Positions 4,176-40,706 of a stretch of DNA of 64,000 bases are shown here, piece after piece. The notes beneath the pieces are model-generated. The model made no database searches. It saw only the letters and a list, made by a program, of their open reading frames with translations, and was not told the origin of the DNA. This DNA is from Candidatus Bathyarchaeota archaeon. GTDB lineage: Archaea; Thermoproteota; Bathyarchaeia; Bathyarchaeales; Bathycorpusculaceae. The number at the start of each line of letters is the position of its first letter. The first letter of the stretch is position 1. The stretch is from assembly GCA_963826715.1 (NCBI GenBank), contig CAWGYA010000002.1:32001-96000 (forward strand), read 5' to 3'. The position numbers and the translations under genes are program-made.

Positions 4176-4504
4176 TTTTTTACCTCATTTTTTATTATTA
4201 TGATATGCTAATGTATTGGAGTGTTAAGATAGTTTGCTGAAACAGATGTGAAACAGTTTTGAAACATGCTCTAAAGACCCTGAATAGCTGCTTTGGCTGT
4301 CTTATTCATGATCTTGAATTATGTTATAATATTCTAATATCGCACTTTTAGACGTTGTGGTGGATTATAGAAATTCTTCCTTAATTCTGAGGAAAGCAAG
4401 CATTGACTATCTATTGGCGCTGATAGTGGGGAGTTATCGAACGCTGAGCTACCCTTAAGTAACTCTTATATTCAGTTATCAATAAGTTAGTAAGAGGCTT
4501 TTTA

Positions 4505-5005
4505 GTGAACTTCAAAGATTCTGAGTTCTTGCTGGCGTTATTAATTGTCATAGTAACAGCCTTGTTTATGGTCGCTGCCTTCCTACATTGGATAAACGTA
4601 AGTTTCTTTGTTGGTCCGCTTCGTTTCAGTCATTGGCTTGCCATAATTGGAACTAGCTACATTGCCATCGATACCCCAGTATTCGTGCTCTTAAAGCGTT
4701 ATTATCCTGAAAAATATAAGGGACTTCTTAGGTACCACATATTCGGTAATCTTCTATTCTTTTCGCTAGTCTCGATTCATTTTTCGGGTCAACTAGGAAG
4801 GTCCGCATTATTCTTTCCGTCTTTGGGAACGGGTTTAGCTATTTACATTTCCATGACTTTAGAAGTGATATCAGGTTTCGCTGAGAGATTCCCATTAATA
4901 AAGCAAATTGACCATAATACTAACAAGTTTATTCACGCCAGTTTGGTTATGGTATTTTTCTTGGTGATAATTTTCCATGTTCTTATCACATTAGGCATTC
5001 TCTAA
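4505..5005 (+). CDS. Integral membrane protein with His residues in TM helices (possibly heme-binding)
   Basis: About 5 hydrophobic helices carrying His (SHW, YHI, IHF, IHA, FHV). Confidence 0.55.
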   Translation: MNFKDSEFLLALLIVIVTALFMVAAFLHWINVSFFVGPLRFSHWLAIIGTSYIAIDTPVFVLLKRYYPEKYKGLLRYHIFGNLLFFSLVSIHFSGQLGRSALFFPSLGTGLAIYISMTLEVISGFAERFPLIKQIDHNTNKFIHASLVMVFFLVIIFHVLITLGIL

Positions 5006-5112
5006 AATCGGGTAGAACTTATCTTTAATATATAACGACCATGCAAGACACGAGTGCTTGCTTGCAAGAAGGGTACCCTTTAGTGATGTATCCTGCTTCA
5101 AGAGGAGGTTCT

Positions 5113-5142
5113 TAGTCGGCGGCAACCCTTGTGGTTGCTCGC
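5113..5142. repeat. 30-bp hairpin motif identical (inverted) to 58820-58849
   Basis: TAGTCGGCGGCAACCCTTGTGGTTGCTCGC is the exact reverse complement of 58820-58849. Internal stem GCAACC-cttgt-GGTTGC. Confidence 0.95.
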
Positions 5143-5182
5143 TTCTATCTATTTTATTCTTTAATCTTACTGTTTAATGTGC

Positions 5183-5202
5183 GGCTGGTGTGTTGGTTGT
5201 AA
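5183..5202 (-). repeat. att site: displaced 3' fragment of rnpB
   Basis: 19/20 identical to 10492-10511, the 3' P1 strand of RNase P RNA. Confidence 0.85.
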
Positions 5203-5284
5203 TTCCACTCCTGTGGAGATATCTCCCGCACCTCTTCCCTTTTTTCATGCTATGGCAACTTAGGGCTTCTGCTGTGCCTAAAAA

Positions 5285-6232
5285 ATGGCATCCCTTCGAG
5301 GCTTCCTCAAAGACTACCTACGACAAAACTTCTCCGTCGATGAAATTGTTGAGAAATACAAAGAATGGGTTTCCGAAAACACCTACATGATACTCTCCAA
5401 ATGGAATAATAAAAAATGGAAAAATGACGTTTTCGCTGTCAAATGCTCCAAACGTGGAAATGATATCTATCGCTGGCGAGTAAAAAGCAGATTTGTAGGT
5501 CTGAGTCATAAAGCAGAGGATTTAGTTTTTTTCAACCCTAAAGACAGAAGTAACGATAAAACTACGTGCGCCCTTTGGACTACACTAACCTATGATACTA
5601 AACTCTGCTCATACAAAGAAGCATGGGAACAAATAGGCATAGAATTTAACGCATTCATGGCTTATGTTAGACGTAATTTTGGAAAGGTTTCCTGTTGCCG
5701 AGTGTTTGAATCCTTCGAGAATGGCTATCCACATATTCATTGTATCTTGCTCTTTTCACAATACACTTTTCAAGTGTTTAGGGATGCTAAAGGTCAATTC
5801 AGAGTGCATGAGAAGGATACTATTGCTAAAGGCTGGCATAGCAACGTTGACGTAAAAGCCATGAGTTCCCTTGCTGGCGGTTTCTCATATCTCAAAAAGT
5901 ACCTGCTAAAAGGCATTGACGCTGAAAACGCTGATTCTAAAGGCTTAAAGACATTGGCTCTCTGTTGGATTTACCGAAAAAGAGCCTTTGCCGTAAGTGG
6001 AACTTTCCGTAAGGCGTTGTCCGACTTGATTACTGATTTGCATAACTCAAACAAACCCACAACACAAGTTACTCTTTTAGGCGAAATAATCCCTGAAGAA
6101 CATTTCTATTTACTCGGTTTCGCCTCAGCTCAGGAACTACAAATAGACAAAAATATTTGGTTCACTATTTTAAATAGTAAACAGTTGACTTTGCTGAATG
6201 ATTGTTTAAAGAAGACATATTATGCTAAGTGA
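5285..6232 (+). CDS. HUH rolling-circle replication initiator (Rep, YxxKY two-tyrosine type)
   Basis: Motif I WTTLTY, motif II GYPHIHCIL, motif III YLKKYLLK. Confidence 0.88.
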   Translation: MASLRGFLKDYLRQNFSVDEIVEKYKEWVSENTYMILSKWNNKKWKNDVFAVKCSKRGNDIYRWRVKSRFVGLSHKAEDLVFFNPKDRSNDKTTCALWTTLTYDTKLCSYKEAWEQIGIEFNAFMAYVRRNFGKVSCCRVFESFENGYPHIHCILLFSQYTFQVFRDAKGQFRVHEKDTIAKGWHSNVDVKAMSSLAGGFSYLKKYLLKGIDAENADSKGLKTLALCWIYRKRAFAVSGTFRKALSDLITDLHNSNKPTTQVTLLGEIIPEEHFYLLGFASAQELQIDKNIWFTILNSKQLTLLNDCLKKTYYAK

Positions 6233-6367
6233 AAAAAATAAAAACAAAATTTAAAAAATAAACCACTGATAGAATACATATAAGAAGCATTCAATAGATT
6301 TTTAATTCTTTATGGTCAACAGCAACAGATTCTTCAGAAACTTAAATAAATATACTTGTTGTAGACT

Positions 6368-7024
6368 ATGGTTGCAATCGATGAAGGTTATTCTATGGCT
6401 CAAGTAATTAAAGCTCAACCCATGGACATGTCCCTTAATTCAATCTGGATGTTAGATCCCGAGTATAAGGGTATCCGCCAATCTTTAGAAAGTAAAGGAT
6501 ATACATTAAAAGAAGAATCAAGAGGCATCTTGACTATAATTGCATCCAAAGGTACAGTAGAAATATTTGTGAATCTGCAAAGGCGTGTATTGGGTATTGG
6601 TAGCGAAACTTCGTCTAAAGATATGCTTGCAGCATATGACGACTTGGATCAAACCTTTACTGATATCGGTATGGAACCTTCTAATCTAATGTTTATTGAG
6701 TTTATAGGCAATTTTATAGTAGAATCCCCTGTAAGTCCAATAGAGACACTGAAAGGTCTAAAATTTGAAAATGATTTATTAATGAAAATAGGTGTAATTT
6801 TAGAAAAAGATGTTGCAAATGTCGGGATAAATCTTACTCTGAAGGAAGCTAATCCTACTGGATCCAATTGGTTGCATATGGTAATTGAACCACTATATCC
6901 AAGCCCTAATAAAAAATATCGTGTTAGAACGATATGTAGAGGCGACAAAGAAGAAGTACTAAAATTTGTTAAAAATATTGAGAAAAGACTGCCAAGAATA
7001 ATTGAAAAAATTGAGAGGAAATAA
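6368..7024 (+). CDS. Hypothetical cargo protein, first gene of a three-gene operon
   Basis: 218-aa ORF, AT-rich; next gene starts 3 bp after its stop. Confidence 0.7.
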   Translation: MVAIDEGYSMAQVIKAQPMDMSLNSIWMLDPEYKGIRQSLESKGYTLKEESRGILTIIASKGTVEIFVNLQRRVLGIGSETSSKDMLAAYDDLDQTFTDIGMEPSNLMFIEFIGNFIVESPVSPIETLKGLKFENDLLMKIGVILEKDVANVGINLTLKEANPTGSNWLHMVIEPLYPSPNKKYRVRTICRGDKEEVLKFVKNIEKRLPRIIEKIERK

Positions 7025-7027
7025 ATT

Positions 7028-7585
7028 ATGGCTCTTTCTGAAGAAAGCACAGGTTTTAGTTTATACGATTGTTCATATTTAACCGAAAGAGATATCGCTT
7101 CTTCTCAGCCAGATTTTTACAAAGAGAGACAATCTTTGGAGCAAAAACCTGAAAAGCTAATAAATATTCTACAAACGCATGAACCGATTTCTGTTGTAAG
7201 TAGAGTTGAAAATTTGCTGTCAAGTGCTGCCGCAAGTGACTACCCACTTAGCCTAAATACTAAACCAATTTATGAAATTTCAGAAGATGCTAATACTTAC
7301 ATTAGTAGACAGAAAAATTTTTCTAAATATGAAAAAGAAATTACGAAAATATCTTGTTGCATATCTGAATTTTTAACCAAGGAAGGTATTTCATCAAAGA
7401 TCACAGTGAGTCTCTTTTCTGATCCTGAATATTCAAACTGGATTGAACCAAGAATCCAAATCGGGGTTAGACAGGAAACTCTACAGAAAACTTATGCCCT
7501 TTTTAATGAACTATTAGAATACTCATTTGTAGGAATATCAAAAAAAACATTAAAAAAGATCGTCGTTACTATTGATAGCCAATAA
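7028..7585 (+). CDS. Hypothetical cargo protein, putative antitoxin partner of the downstream HEPN protein
   Basis: 185-aa ORF abutting the HEPN gene; C-terminal domain contains SLFSDPE. Function inferred from context only. Confidence 0.55.
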   Translation: MALSEESTGFSLYDCSYLTERDIASSQPDFYKERQSLEQKPEKLINILQTHEPISVVSRVENLLSSAAASDYPLSLNTKPIYEISEDANTYISRQKNFSKYEKEITKISCCISEFLTKEGISSKITVSLFSDPEYSNWIEPRIQIGVRQETLQKTYALFNELLEYSFVGISKKTLKKIVVTIDSQ

Positions 7586-8032
7586 GTGGTAATCATGATA
7601 GCTCCCTGCAGCTTCATGCTGTTTGCAAAGAAGCTCGTTCAGCAAACAAATGCTCCTGAAGAAGAGTATCGATCAGCAGTAAGCAGAGCATATTATTCAT
7701 TATACCATGAAACGCTTCATCATTTGGTTCAAAAATATTCATTTGATTTAATAAATAGCATTGAAAAAGCCAAAAGAAGACAATTGACTCAGCATGAAAA
7801 AACCAGACTTAGCGCGCTTGACCCCACCTTTTTGAGAAAATTTAACCTTCATCAAGCAATTTCTGACACGCTTTTTGACCTAAATTATCGGGCAGTTGCA
7901 ACAACTTTTAAGGGTTATAGAGCTCATCGAAATCAAGCCGATTATGACCTAAAACGAAATTTAACACATATTGAAGCAGATGTTATAGTAAAGAACATTG
8001 ATGTTTTTATTGGCGCCATTAAAGCGCTTTAA
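7586..8032 (+). CDS. HEPN domain protein (UPF0332-like)
   Basis: YRSAVSRAYYSLYH and RNQADYD motifs typical of this HEPN class. Confidence 0.82.
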   Translation: MVIMIAPCSFMLFAKKLVQQTNAPEEEYRSAVSRAYYSLYHETLHHLVQKYSFDLINSIEKAKRRQLTQHEKTRLSALDPTFLRKFNLHQAISDTLFDLNYRAVATTFKGYRAHRNQADYDLKRNLTHIEADVIVKNIDVFIGAIKAL

Positions 8033-8161
8033 AACAAGTCAGGTATTAATAAATTAAATAAAAATTTTCCAAAAGCTGATTTAAGAAAGTCGTAAGAGAA
8101 TAAAAGTAATACGTGTAAATCATAGGAGTTTTTGGGATTGTGCCGAGGGAGGAGTGCGGGG

Positions 8162-8260
8162 GGGTACCCTTTAGGGTGGGGTCATCCGCTACGACGACCG
8201 AGGCGCTTAACGGTCGTCGTCTGGAACGTGCGAGGCGAGCGGTAGCCGCCGAGCCACAAA
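8162..8260. other. GC-rich hairpin cluster in element 1 (candidate replication origin or terminator)
   Basis: Perfect 10-bp inverted repeat ACGACGACCG (8191-8200) / CGGTCGTCGT (8211-8220) between convergent genes; 13-mer GGGTACCCTTTAG shared with 5071-5083. Confidence 0.5.
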
Positions 8261-8263
8261 AAA

Positions 8264-8983
8264 CTACTTTCTTACTCTTTTTCCAGTTTCCTTTCTTTTT
8301 CGATATAGCTCACGGTCACTTCTTAACGCATTGGTCAATAGCTCAATTTTCTCAAAAAGTGCTTTTTTGTAGTTATCATTGTAACGACATTTTTCACTTG
8401 CTCTTTCCAATTGAACTCTATATGTAGGTCTTACGACGTAGTTCCAAAAAGATTCGTCGTTTTCGCCATTTTTTAGCTGTAAACCGTCATTTATTGAAAG
8501 TCTCAATTCCCAAAGGTTCAATGCCATAATATCATGTAAATCTCGGTCAGTTTCAAAATCTATTTCGTCGTCAGAAAGATTGCTGTAAAACTCTTCTGTG
8601 GTTATGGGTAAAGCTCGCAATTCTGGGGGAAGGCATGCATTGTTACCAAGGTCAAGGTACTCCAGAATTTCCTCCTTTGGCATAATCATTATGCTTCTAA
8701 ACTTGTCGCTTAAAGCGTAGGTTACCTCTTGAAAGCCAGTTTCAACCCGCTTAACCAACTTCTTTTCCTCTAAATGTTTTAGGTGTTTAGACAAAACCTT
8801 ATTGGTTATCTCGGTGTCTGTCAATTTGGTAACAGCGCTTTTTAGGTAACCAAATCTAAGAATTTTATCCTCCAACAAAATTCTAAGAATGCTCTGGCAA
8901 GTATGGTCAAGAAATTCGGCTGAATCAAACAAAGACTCTCTTTCCTTCTCATCCATTGGCGTTTCATTAACCATTAGATACAC
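8264..8983 (-). CDS. Winged-helix (HxlR/MarR-like) regulator of element 1
   Basis: LRFGYLK...ITNKVLSKHLKHLEEKKLVKR...VTYAL wHTH; divergent from the integrase operon. Confidence 0.75.
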   Translation of the reverse strand: MYLMVNETPMDEKERESLFDSAEFLDHTCQSILRILLEDKILRFGYLKSAVTKLTDTEITNKVLSKHLKHLEEKKLVKRVETGFQEVTYALSDKFRSIMIMPKEEILEYLDLGNNACLPPELRALPITTEEFYSNLSDDEIDFETDRDLHDIMALNLWELRLSINDGLQLKNGENDESFWNYVVRPTYRVQLERASEKCRYNDNYKKALFEKIELLTNALRSDRELYRKRKETGKRVRK

Positions 8984-8992
8984 CCTGTGAAT

Positions 8993-9014
8993 TGGGTACC
9001 AGACTGGGTACCAG
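8993..9014. promoter_or_regulatory. Tandem TGGGTACCAG repeats, putative operator in the divergent promoter
   Basis: Two exact 10-bp copies (8993-9002, 9005-9014) next to the TATA-like TTATTAATAT. Confidence 0.5.
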
Positions 9015-9056
9015 TTATTAATATACTCTTTTTGAGCCTTAAACTCCGTTGGAGGT

Positions 9057-9290
9057 TTGACGGTGAAAAATCAATTAAAACCTAACCAGATAGGCATAGA
9101 AGTAAATGATGTGGACTTAAACAAGATCTGTCGAGTAGGCAAAAAAGTGCAAGTGTTCCTATGCAGAAAAATCGATGACCCATTTGAAATCTACTTGCTC
9201 CTAAAAATCCTCTGCTATTCACTTGAGGAGAAAATGCATTTTCTTCTAGACCCTGAAGACGAACAAGCACTAAGAAAAATTTTTGCTTAA
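9057..9290 (+). CDS. Small hypothetical protein upstream of the integrase
   Basis: 77-aa ORF preceded by a GGAGG Shine-Dalgarno; co-oriented with the integrase. Confidence 0.6.
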   Translation: MTVKNQLKPNQIGIEVNDVDLNKICRVGKKVQVFLCRKIDDPFEIYLLLKILCYSLEEKMHFLLDPEDEQALRKIFA

Positions 9291-9314
9291 TAATCAACTA
9301 AACGAGGTTTAGAG

Positions 9315-10463
9315 TTGACTGCTCAAATAAATGTGAGTGGAGGTGAAAAGGCAAACAGAGAATGTCCTAATTGTCATAGTAAGAAAAACTGGAAAAGAGG
9401 AAAAAGAGAAAATCAATTTGGCTCAATTCAGCGGTTTATTTGTCGAGAATGCGGTTCAAGTTTTAGTGAAAAATCATATAAAGATTATCAGCTATCAAAC
9501 AATAGCCAATTATGCGCTAAATTAGAGGCGAAAAAATTGGATACTGCAACAGAATTAAAAACTGTTGCGGGAGATAACAACGAACAAGGGGAAATCATAG
9601 CTTTCCTATGGCACCTAAAAAAGCAAGGGTACAGCGAGTCTACAATCCATACAAGAGTAAAGATACTGAAATTCATGAGAAAACAAAGCGTGAACCTACA
9701 AGATCCTGAAGCGGTCAAGCTTTTCATTGCAAAACGCGAAGAATGGAGCAATGGACATAAACAAATTGCCGTAACCTCCTACGATGGCTTTGCAGAAATG
9801 CTAAAAATAAAATGGGAACCACCGTTCTATGAAAACAACAAAACACTTCCTTTCGTTCCAACAGAAAAAGAAGTCGATGCACTAGTTTCCGCATGCAGCA
9901 AAAAAATAGCTACCTCATTATTAGCAATGAAAGAAACAGGCTTTAGAATAGGCGAACTATGGAAATGCAAATGGACTGACTTAGACGAGGAAAATAGTAC
10001 ACTCAAATGCATAGCAGAAAAACACGGCAATCCAAGACAAATCAAAATATCAAGCAGATTAGTTTCGATGCTCTTAGCACTACCAAAGATAAACGATTAC
10101 ATCTTCGCTAACTCCAATCTAAACGGTCACAGATGGCGATTCGACAAACAGAAAAAAGCCCTATCGATAAAACTACAAAACCCAAGGCTCAAACAAATAA
10201 AATTCCATAGCATGAGACACTTCAAAGCATCAAAAGAATACGCCCAAACCAGAGACATACTACACGTCAAAGAGTTTCTCGGTCATAGGAACATCAACAG
10301 CACCTTAGTTTATACACACTTAGTTCCTTTCGATGACGACGCACAAGGCTATAATCACGCAACCGCAAAAGACGAGAAAGAAGCAGGAGAGCTAATTGAT
10401 AACGGTTTCCAATATGTTTGTTCTACTCCACAGGGAGTCATGATGTTTAGAAAACGCAAGTAA
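9315..10463 (+). CDS. Tyrosine recombinase/integrase with N-terminal zinc ribbon
   Basis: CPNC...CREC ribbon; catalytic residues in GFRIGE, AEKHG, HSMRH, LGH and TLVY. Confidence 0.92.
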   Translation: MTAQINVSGGEKANRECPNCHSKKNWKRGKRENQFGSIQRFICRECGSSFSEKSYKDYQLSNNSQLCAKLEAKKLDTATELKTVAGDNNEQGEIIAFLWHLKKQGYSESTIHTRVKILKFMRKQSVNLQDPEAVKLFIAKREEWSNGHKQIAVTSYDGFAEMLKIKWEPPFYENNKTLPFVPTEKEVDALVSACSKKIATSLLAMKETGFRIGELWKCKWTDLDEENSTLKCIAEKHGNPRQIKISSRLVSMLLALPKINDYIFANSNLNGHRWRFDKQKKALSIKLQNPRLKQIKFHSMRHFKASKEYAQTRDILHVKEFLGHRNINSTLVYTHLVPFDDDAQGYNHATAKDEKEAGELIDNGFQYVCSTPQGVMMFRKRK

Positions 10464-10491
10464 AGATACACCTAGGCGGGTTAGTAAAATA

Positions 10492-10801
10492 GGCTGGTGT
10501 ATTGGTTGTAACCCGCCTTTTGTTATTGTGGCATTTGGCTAATCGGGCTACCCGCGCCTTCCGGTAGATGCTTCATCGGCGTCTGTTTGCCCTTTCCACT
10601 TGCAGGACGGCCGTTTCACCGGTTCCCGTTCAGCGGACTCGGCATCACAAATGCGTCATTGCCATATCTGAAGGGACGTTTCGTTTCTGCTCTGTTGCCA
10701 AGCCTTTAGGCCTGCCCCATAGGAGCTGCAATTCTACATGTGGGCGGAGTTTCCTCAGACCCTTTGCAGGGTCCGACAGCCACGCACCAACCCACCAACC
10801 C
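10492..10801 (-). ncRNA. rnpB: RNase P RNA
   Basis: Minus strand has CR-I GAGGAAACUCCGCC, GAAACGGC and CR-V AACAAAAGGCGGGUUA (P4 pairing). 5' GGUUGGUG pairs with 3' CACCAGCC (P1). TATA-like CTTTATCT about 25 bp upstream. Confidence 0.93.
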
Positions 10802-11049
10802 ATGGTGTAAAAGGCAGTCGCAAGAAGATAAAGTTTAGCTGCGGTAATTTTACAAATAGCACACAAAAACGAATTGTTCAAGCGTGAGCTGAAAATGAAA
10901 GGTAAGGTAAAATCTGAAATATCAGGAAAATTTGATGCCGTTTCGTTTATGAGATTTTGGTGTTGTGCAGATACAGTCACAAATTTTTAAAAGCAGTATA
11001 TCTCAAATGATACTGGCGACATGTAATTTATCTTTGGGAGGTGCATTTT

Positions 11050-11247
11050 ATGCCTGAATCAGAGAATATAAATGAAAGATTGCAGAAAATCGGTGAAACC
11101 GCACAAGAATACAAAGATGCTATCATGAACCAATTCAAGGACATGGAAGTTGAAGTAAAAAACTGGAACTTTGCGGTTGGAAAAATGGAAAAGGATTACA
11201 CAGTTGAGATAAATCTTAAACTAAATATCCGCTCCAAAAAACCTTAA
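11050..11247 (+). CDS. Small hypothetical protein
   Basis: GGAGGTG Shine-Dalgarno before ATG 11050; charged ~65-aa ORF. Confidence 0.6.
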   Translation: MPESENINERLQKIGETAQEYKDAIMNQFKDMEVEVKNWNFAVGKMEKDYTVEINLKLNIRSKKP

Positions 11248-36782: not shown

Positions 36783-36870
36783 TGGCGCCGAGAATGGGAT
36801 TCGAACCCATGCGGACCGGAAGGTCCACGGGCTCTCAAGGCCCGCGCGTTAACCACTCTGCCATCTCGGC
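36783..36870 (-). tRNA. tRNA-Ser (UGA), CCA encoded
   Basis: GCCGAGA acceptor stem, anticodon loop CUUGAGA, long variable arm, GGUUCGAAUCC and 3' GCCA. Confidence 0.95.
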
Positions 36871-40631: not shown

Positions 40632-40706
40632 GGGCCGGTCGTCTAGCCTGGTTAGGACATCTGCTTGACGTGCAGAAGGTCGCCGGTCCGAATCCGGCTC
40701 GGCCCA
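40632..40706 (+). tRNA. tRNA-Val (GAC)
   Basis: GGGCCGG/UCGGCCC acceptor stem; anticodon loop UUGACGU; slightly atypical T-loop UCCGAAU. Confidence 0.93.

Follow-up and report, generated by a model that had tools for sequence, protein, structure and literature searches.

That tRNA and tmRNA genes serve as sites of site-specific integration is standard textbook material; other stable RNA genes have rarely been reported as targets. Here we describe a 5.3-kb plasmid-like element of a Bathyarchaeota archaeon, residing in a 64-kb stretch of contig CAWGYA010000002.1 (64,000 nucleotides, referred to below as the window) and directly adjoining the 3' end of rnpB, the RNase P RNA gene. We are highly confident that this small Rep-bearing replicon was integrated by a tyrosine recombinase, with the last 20 bp of rnpB serving as its attachment site (attB). 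The mechanism is familiar; the novelty lies in a target that an entire integrase group uses and in the presence of element arrays at a ribozyme gene.

The best basis for comparison is provided by the Islander-type genomic islands and by proviruses whose tyrosine integrases act on the 3' part of tRNA or tmRNA genes (PMC4383910). The element in the window resembles these islands in several respects: an identity block reaches the 3' end of the RNA gene, this end is restored while the native fragment is displaced, the integrase gene lies next to the attachment (att) site, and tandem arrays are found at one site. It differs from them in its target (rnpB) and in the exchanged part, which is the 3' strand of helix P1 and not the acceptor or T arm. 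The closest published parallel that we found is phage phiEf11 of Enterococcus faecalis, which integrates into ffs (4.5S/signal recognition particle RNA), a site presented as novel in a 2025 paper (PMC12540744); that paper names tRNA/tmRNA and csRNA as known non-coding RNA targets, and rnpB is not among them. In both cases a non-tRNA stable RNA gene acts as attB, with a core of 27 nt in phiEf11 versus 20 nt here, and a distance between attP and the integrase gene of 74 nt versus 28 nt. phiEf11 differs in being a bacterial element, a tailed phage, and in using another RNA.

With respect to the known archaeal systems, the location of the att site outside a whole integrase gene and the small plasmid-like replicon are features shared with integrases of the intact type, for which pNOB8-type and type II are common names; a zinc ribbon with four cysteines at the N-terminus, as found here, is unusual. 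Archaeal integrases that remain intact after integration are treated in a review (PMC8371274) in which the terms "RNase P" and "rnpB" do not occur. The SSV-type "suicidal" integrases, recorded in Sulfolobales and Thermococcales (PMC7253208), are likewise archaeal tyrosine recombinases of small elements that target stable RNA genes. In their case attP is located inside the int open reading frame (ORF) and the gene is split, whereas here the ORF is uninterrupted and its stop codon is followed by the core at a distance of 28 nt. A survey of thaumarchaeal integrated elements names tRNA genes, intergenic regions and protein genes as the only targets, and a survey of Bathyarchaeia viruses contains no occurrence of "RNase P". 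The initial annotation of this DNA knew of no well-described use of rnpB as attB; our search of the literature, which covered main texts, likewise turned up no description of integration at rnpB, and a database entry may exist.

The landmarks of the integration site are as follows (coordinates of the window).

10492..10800, minus strand: RNase P RNA gene (rnpB), type A archaeal, defined by Rfam RF00373, P1 pairing and conservation in relatives
10492..10511, minus strand: attL core, proximal copy; UUACAACCAAUACACCAGCC in RNA sense; the whole P1 3' strand, with the U allele at 10501
5183..5202, minus strand: attR core, displaced native copy; TTACAACCAACACACCAGCC in RNA sense; C allele at 5192, the allele of the empty-site contigs
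5160..5182, minus strand: native sequence downstream of rnpB, GCACATTAAACAGTAAG..., joined directly to the gene in the empty-site contigs

RNase P is generally regarded as essential, and the 2.64-Mb genome contains a single copy of rnpB. This gene matched the archaeal RNase P RNA model (RF00373, RNaseP_arch) with 170.2 bits against a gathering score of 84 (E = 9.9e-49); the match was not truncated and covered all model positions (1-288) over 10795..10497 of the minus strand. The five extra bases on either side pair with each other (10796-10800 with 10496-10492), and helix P1 and the RNA therefore extend to 10492. This extension to 10800/10492 is also kept in 28 relatives, and the RNA end ...CACCAGCC is kept among relatives. 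When folded, the two ends of rnpB form an 8-bp and a 6-bp helix with a single unpaired G between them. The target is thus full-length after integration, since the entire model is matched and P1 folds with the new strand. The target is rnpB and not a tRNA or tmRNA gene; the nearest tRNA genes are at 36786 and 40632.

It had been claimed that the last ~20 nt of rnpB are duplicated at 5183-5202 with one difference, and this proved correct: GGCTGGTGTGTTGGTTGTAA (5183-5202) and GGCTGGTGTATTGGTTGTAA (10492-10511) are identical at 19 of 20 positions, in direct orientation. The two copies flank the element and one of them constitutes the 3' end of the RNA gene; the RNaseP_arch search, proposed as a check of the RNA ends, indeed places the 3' end of the RNase P RNA within the repeat. 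When up to 3 mismatches were allowed, the 20-mer was found only at these two sites in the window, and none of 100 dinucleotide shuffles gave a match; with up to 2 mismatches, these were the only two sites in the complete genome, with a count of 0 for the reversed-pattern control. A chance repeat is ruled out by this uniqueness in both window and genome and by the outcome of the shuffles. The sequence GGGTTACAACC may bear a weak resemblance to a tRNA T arm.

The single mismatch, A10501 versus G5192 on the plus strand, corresponds to U versus C in the RNA and faces the G at 10791 in P1. The pair is G.U in the present gene and would be G-C with the distal copy, as originally stated and as found both in the covariance model alignment and in the fold. 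According to ViennaRNA, the P1 duplex has an energy of -25.0 kcal/mol with U and -26.5 kcal/mol with C, i.e. a cost of 1.5 kcal/mol (-117.4 versus -118.9 for the whole RNA). The statement of the initial annotation that the element "repairs" helix P1 therefore holds in so far as the P1 3' strand is replaced by the element, but it is overstated, because one pair is weakened from G-C to G.U (by ~1.5 kcal/mol).

Logan contigs of four runs, derived from soil or sediment metagenomes of two studies and of low depth, were examined over positions 4500-11200; stretches of the element without contig cover (e.g. 5844-7187) carry no evidential weight. An empty site, in which rnpB continues into the sequence left of 5183, had been predicted, and contigs of two runs from the two studies join the flanks in exactly this manner. 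In run X2, a 697-nt contig matches 4904-5192 with its letters 408-697 and 10502-10908 with its letters 1-407, with one other and one inserted letter, while a 357-nt contig of run X5, from the other study, joins 5058-5192 to 10502-10723 with zero differences. Both contigs skip precisely 5309 bp (joint from 5192 to 10502), leaving a single core between the flanks. Because ten letters fit either side, any position from 5192/10502 to 5202/10512 is possible for the joint. G5192, the distal allele, is present in both contigs; the element-free rnpB therefore has C in its RNA (the G-C allele), ends with ...CCAACACACCAGCC and passes straight into the sequence left of 5183. A contig of the best-matching run (X1) spans the attR junction (5053-5256) and, taken together with the empty-site contigs, shows that the population holds both states. 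The native flank (CACATTAAACAGTAAG) is also found directly after rnpB in the loci L010 and L023, and after the distal core (attR) of another element in L073.

The integrase gene and the sequences adjoining the cores have the following positions.

5203..10491, plus strand: element-specific DNA between the cores; predicted excised circle of 5309 bp
5203..5250, minus strand: P-left arm on the element side, adjoining the core upstream of rep; contains the palindrome GGAGATATCTCC; aligned with L055, L152 and L162 (alignment A2)
9315..10463, plus strand: tyrosine integrase, 382 aa, intact; PF00589; N-terminal four-cysteine zinc ribbon and catalytic domain
10464..10491, minus strand: P-right arm, after the core; UAUUUUACUAACCCGCCUAGGUGUAUCU in RNA sense; new 3' trailer of rnpB

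The integrase belongs to family PF00589 (65.4 bits over residues 183-336, cut-off 27.1) and to the viral integrase family phrog_1 (E = 1.3e-22), and its frame is open, without stops. Residues R211, K236, H298, R301, H324 and Y333 are invariant in an alignment (A1) of this protein with 16 relatives, and they correspond to what we take to be the catalytic motif of such enzymes (R...K...HxxR...H/W...Y). The cysteines of the zinc ribbon (C17, C20, C43 and C46) are invariant in the same 17 sequences; the ribbon is weakly similar to the IS1/IS1595 zinc domain (26 bits, cut-off 28). Homologues of the integrase are labelled Bathyarchaeia or Bathyarchaeota by their sources, which places the host in that class. 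The distance of 28 bp between the integrase stop codon and the site, given in the initial annotation, was confirmed (stop at 10461-10463, followed by 10464-10491). On the other side of the element, the left arm (~45 nt) is conserved as far as the core, and the similarity stops precisely where the core does (A2). The right arm is kept in the window, L055, G014, G012 and L160 (alignment A3, from which the row of L142 was left out) as well as in 39 metagenome contigs. The G+C content is 0.33-0.40 in the element versus 0.38-0.45 in its flanks.

Recurrent use of this site by a distinct group of integrases was revealed by a scan based on the integrase alignment, with one genome per species, in which the best 80 of 516 confirmed stretches were analysed; rnpB was located in these 80 loci by a profile of the relatives' rnpB. 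The gene was found beside the integrase in 19 of the best 80 loci, and a bare core was present in 3 more (L061, L063, L072). Ten of the 19 loci (class A: L055-L060, L065-L067, L088) have the geometry of the window, with rnpB on the strand opposite to the integrase gene. The rnpB 3' end is located 16-34 nt past the integrase stop codon in 9 of these 10 loci; in L088, which has a truncated frame, the distance is 288 nt. The junction reads ...CCAGCC followed by TATTTTACTAA or a close variant. The other nine loci (class B: L062, L064, L068-L071, L073-L075) encode a shorter integrase without the zinc ribbon, co-oriented with rnpB and starting just past its 3' end; here the identity block extends further, comprising AAGGCGGG in addition to the core, and a conserved left arm is present, AAATTACTAAG...AAAGG. 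Shortened integrase frames were noted in L061, L065 and L067.

None of the remaining 58 loci contains rnpB: 36 have a tRNA gene at most 400 nt past the integrase stop codon, 17 have neither, and five end too soon. In 30 of the 36 tRNA-associated loci the tRNA gene (for Cys, Arg, Leu, Ala, Pro and others) is on the opposite strand, -80 to 150 nt from the stop codon. In a quick maximum-likelihood tree of 81 integrases, with SH-aLRT as the only support measure, 22 rnpB- or core-associated integrases group with support 100, and all 23 of them, with the window included, are placed on one side of a branch (SH-aLRT 99) whose opposite side holds all of the tRNA-associated ones. The tree was midpoint-rooted for drawing only and does not show which target came first. 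A second copy of the identity block was detected within the 8-kb flanks searched in one of 30 loci of tRNA-targeting relatives (L122, a 24-nt repeat running from the 5' T-stem through the 3' end); the elements of these relatives are probably longer than such flanks.

The same site is occupied in related genomes. A DNA search of 40 relatives identified rnpB in 21 of 24 same-genus genomes, together with extra short copies of its 3' end. Insertion signatures downstream of rnpB, i.e. second cores or integrase remnants, are present at 9 of 16 same-genus loci, some of them in tandem. Two further cores occur in each of G002, G008 and G003; those of G003 lie 4.5 and 11.1 kb downstream and are accompanied by integrase homologues. 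A second core that matches perfectly was located at 1.4 kb in G021, where a weaker copy follows at 2.0 kb, and at 2.9 kb in G023:C13, whereas the further core of G013:C25 has 4 mismatches. Integrase sequences related to that of the window were found in G014 (second core and a 140-aa remnant, 88.6% identical), G012 (the same right-arm junction and an 18-aa remnant) and G015 (a 75%-identical integrase, followed by the contig end). No insertion signature was seen in G001, G005, G007, G010, G018, G019 (a 4-mismatch match only) and G020:C75. In the complete genome G003 (C1:934500-949500, L032) the cores of the tandem array are at locus positions 1405, 5945 and 12461 and delimit elements of 4.5 and 6.5 kb, the first of which has a co-oriented integrase gene right after rnpB. 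On a contig of G013 that lacks rnpB (C1:97000-111000, L036), two fragments of the 3' end of rnpB, one of 56 nt and one of 28 nt, are separated by 5.9 kb; these could be displaced pieces, a secondary site or the result of an assembly split, the full gene being on C25.

The exact junction between the rnpB end and the right arm is carried by 39 metagenome contigs, with rnpB directly upstream in 22 of them, an element arm upstream in 15, and two contigs too short to tell. At least L152 and L164 are tandem arrays starting at rnpB. Complete attL/attR pairs with the arms of the window were identified in L055 (20/20, 6.46 kb) and L057 (20/20, 5.3 kb), and the integrase of L055 is the closest full relative (84% identity). 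Junctions of the order left arm-core-right arm exist in the two arrays L152 and L164 and in L172; in L061, L063, L157, L158 and L172 the core has non-rnpB sequence upstream, a configuration in which a free attP and an array junction are indistinguishable. Protein searches revealed almost no synteny of the flanks with relatives, the common part being 17-23 nt of native flank and one ORF.

We propose that the segment 5203-10491 is a 5.3-kb integrative plasmid-like element, encoding a HUH Rep, a winged helix-turn-helix (wHTH) regulator, cargo ORFs and a tyrosine integrase, which would have entered a Bathyarchaeia chromosome by site-specific recombination. Its attP would be the 20-bp core located between the int stop codon and the rep start (predicted order in the 5309-bp circle: int stop, 28 nt, core, 82 nt, rep start), and attB the identical last 20 bp of the sole rnpB. 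Upon integration, presumably catalysed by the encoded integrase, the core and right arm of the element would become the 3' end and trailer of rnpB (UAUUUUACUAACCCGCC...) with the gene staying whole, and the native 3' end would come to lie 5.3 kb further downstream, at 5183-5202. The exchange would affect no more of P1 than its 3' strand, one G-C becoming G.U, and the strand exchange itself would fall within TTACAACCAA (5193-5202 = 10502-10511). The view that the element supplied a replacement 3' end and displaced the original, as tRNA-targeting elements do, is supported by the empty site and by the recurrence of integrases at rnpB, while the part concerning the origin of the U is no more than likely.

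Several observations weigh against this proposal or against some of its details. Beyond the integrase and the arms, the cargo differs from that of related elements, and only Rep had a homologue (59% identical, beside a related integrase on the 5.6-kb contig L079). The circle junction (10491 to 5203) was not seen in the contigs of the four sparse runs, a result that says nothing about its absence. Neither a circular contig nor a clear free attP was found (terminal repeats in 0 of 19 small contigs and 0 of 39 metagenome contigs), and viral contigs gave 0 matches to the junction. Strains in which the element was never present may be the source of the empty-site contigs, and a continuing ability of the element to excise is thus a prediction. 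The U/T allele occurs in 1 of 22 metagenome attL copies and in 0 of 15 junctions without rnpB upstream, and may have arisen by later mutation. Finally, core positions 5-6 differ between the array members in L152 and L164, and the comparative data do not fix the crossover.

The origin of the U allele determines how much of the ribozyme came with the element. The segment concerned is:

5193..5202, no strand assigned: 10-bp segment, identical to 10502-10511, in which the strands would have been exchanged if the U came with the element (deduced from the joint)

If the U was already present in attP, the exchange took place within TTGGTTGTAA (5193-5202 = 10502-10511), and no fewer than the final 10 nt of the ribozyme were contributed by the element; we consider this origin of the U rather likely. 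A possible but clearly less likely explanation is that U and C differ by a point mutation that followed the same integration, in the lineage of either rnpB or the displaced copy. It is compatible with integration as proposed above, although the crossover could then lie anywhere in the 20 bp and the element-supplied part of P1 might be a few bases only. Such a mutation is suggested by the rarity of T just mentioned, by the presence of C in both copies of L055 (84% integrase identity), by the fact that C-to-T is a common change, and by the U in rnpB of L003 and L007, downstream of which no element was detected. It is opposed by the attL of G014, which also has T and whose right arm is the most similar one (26 nt nearly identical, next to the 140-aa integrase remnant). 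Also opposed to it is the identity block, which ends exactly at the end of P1; Williams is said to have argued in 2002 that in tRNA-targeting elements an identity block reaching the gene end serves to restore the 3' end. In addition, when cores of the same locus were compared (15 pairs), 20 differences were counted, 19 of them at positions 10-20, as would be expected if that part came from different parents, and one at position 5. This pattern agrees with a crossover located towards the 5' side of the block and a 3' part of different parentage. Core positions 5-6 vary among species and usually agree within a genome, without covariation of the facing 5' strand; they are largely outside the helix, and position 5 is unpaired in the fold of the window's RNA. 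These positions were considered as a mark of the overlap region, and this idea was dropped, since the L152 and L164 arrays differ there.

According to another explanation, which we regard as unlikely, the element is a fixed, immobile fossil and the empty-site contigs are derived from sister strains that never acquired it. The lack of a circle junction in the four runs would agree with this, as would the frequent decay of the relatives' integrases (140 aa in G014, 18 aa in G012, shortened frames in L061, L065 and L067). In the window, however, the frames of both the integrase (382 aa) and Rep (315 aa) are intact, and only one of the 20 core positions differs between the copies. Moreover, the flanks of the empty site differ by 0-1 letters and one gap over 357-697 nt, and gain or loss must therefore have been recent, within one population. 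It is highly improbable that the 20-bp repeat is a target-site duplication produced by transposase-like or HUH Rep-mediated insertion and not by a tyrosine integrase, for, while this would also predict an empty site with one repeat copy and the element does encode a HUH protein, none of the 25 longest pairs listed is a terminal inverted repeat, no transposase or Cas1 typical of a transposon or casposon was found, the same core lies beside integrases of one group in loci that lack this cargo where searched, relatives of the integrase adjoin tRNA 3' ends in the same geometry, and conserved element arms adjoin the core on both sides, the two copies of which are not identical.

In the framework of integration by a tyrosine recombinase, the sequences bracketing the core deserve separate comment.

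10475-10483 (element) and 10509-10517 (core and rnpB), no strand assigned: 9-bp perfect inverted repeat GGCGGGTTA / TAACCCGCC, with halves 25 bp apart that bracket the att core

The right arm carries TAACCCGCC, the complement of GGCGGGTTA; the latter, which we take to be part of the 3' strand of P4 in the RNase P RNA, is located just 5' of the core and overlaps it. A related motif, AACCC[GA]CC, is found 9-12 nt past the core in 10 of 10 class B junctions, and many class A arms have AATACACCAGCC at that offset instead, which is a direct repeat of the end of the core. These motifs could be binding sites for the integrase or could act at the RNA level. The 9-nt UAACCCGCC of the element trailer complements GGCGGGUUA, again presumably the P4 3' strand, and it is conceivable, though doubtful, that a trailer of this kind allows the element to influence the maturation or folding of the host RNase P RNA.

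The element encodes six further ORFs.

5285..6232, plus strand: Rep of the rolling-circle (HUH) type, 315 aa; Pfam PF23343, 30.9 bits (cut-off 27.8); HIHC and YLKKY in the translation
6368..7024, plus strand: ORF of 218 aa, no family match
7028..7585, plus strand: ORF of 185 aa, no significant family match
7586..8032, plus strand: ORF of 148 aa; viral family phrog_5176 (function not known), E = 8e-15
8264..8983, minus strand: winged-helix (HxlR/MarR-like) DNA-binding protein, 239 aa, candidate regulator; PF01638, 23 bits (cut-off 20.8); NCBIfam matches below cut-off
9057..9290, plus strand: small ORF (77 aa) without family match, shortly before int

Rep is assigned to the HUH replication initiators on the basis of its profile (PF23343, ORF2/G2P rolling-circle type) together with HIHC and YLKKY, which we read as the HUH and catalytic Tyr motifs, respectively; it had no match in plasmid or phage collections. 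NCBIfam added nothing for the cargo ORFs. The 148-aa protein contains the stretch R-x-H-R-N-Q, in which we presume a resemblance to HEPN-type motifs; this protein and the product of the 185-aa ORF before it might constitute a toxin-antitoxin-like pair. A role of the 77-aa ORF as an excisionase is only a guess.

To the left of the element, a 166-aa ORF (4505-5005, plus strand) has no family match. A 90%-identical homologue is present in G022:C36 (L054, 701-1198), 200 nt from a class B left arm and core; because of this proximity, that homologue is placed within another rnpB-type element or at its end. In G001 (L040, 2707-3141), a more distant homologue (46%) is found downstream of rnpB, at a distance of 2.4 kb. 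A second rnpB-type element left of 5183 was considered and rejected, as no further core with up to 4 mismatches is present. The class B left-arm motif was also sought and is absent near the site: the window has 4 matches versus 2.8 expected, none of them close.

The genome is rich in paralogous tyrosine integrases (21 matches, with 12 other open frames of 249-455 aa and 30-45% identity). The paralogues are distributed over contigs C1, C2, C5, C7 and C8, one of them in the window at 54737-55456 (G000:C2:86737-87456), and the host thus seems to be rich in integrated elements. The other integrases of the same family in this genome favour tRNA 3' ends; tRNA genes of the window are found at 36786-36870 (minus strand, with a long variable arm) and 40632-40706 (plus strand). 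Short contigs carrying this integrase family also occur in metagenome-assembled genomes labelled Thermotogae, Tenericutes and Thermoplasmatota (L078, L079 and L102), and these are probably mis-binned mobile-element contigs.

One may speculate, though we consider it doubtful, that the rnpB 3' end in Bathyarchaeia is a dedicated landing pad of this integrase group, where repeated integrations leave the sequence of the P1 3' strand and of the trailer to be determined by the elements rather than by the host. This would account for core positions 5-6 and 11 varying freely from species to species.

The occurrence of tandem arrays and decayed remnants at rnpB in many genomes indicates repeated use of this gene and not a single event. 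The gene should therefore be added to the targets considered by island-finding software, since integrations there are probably filed as "intergenic". We know of no genetic tools for Bathyarchaeia, and the 20-bp site with its integrase might become one. One integrase family whose members use either a tRNA 3' end or a ribozyme 3' end also constitutes a natural case of target switching, of value for studies of specificity. The exchange of part of a ribozyme's P1 by mobile elements matters both for the use of rnpB as a phylogenetic marker and for the reading of covariation in P1.

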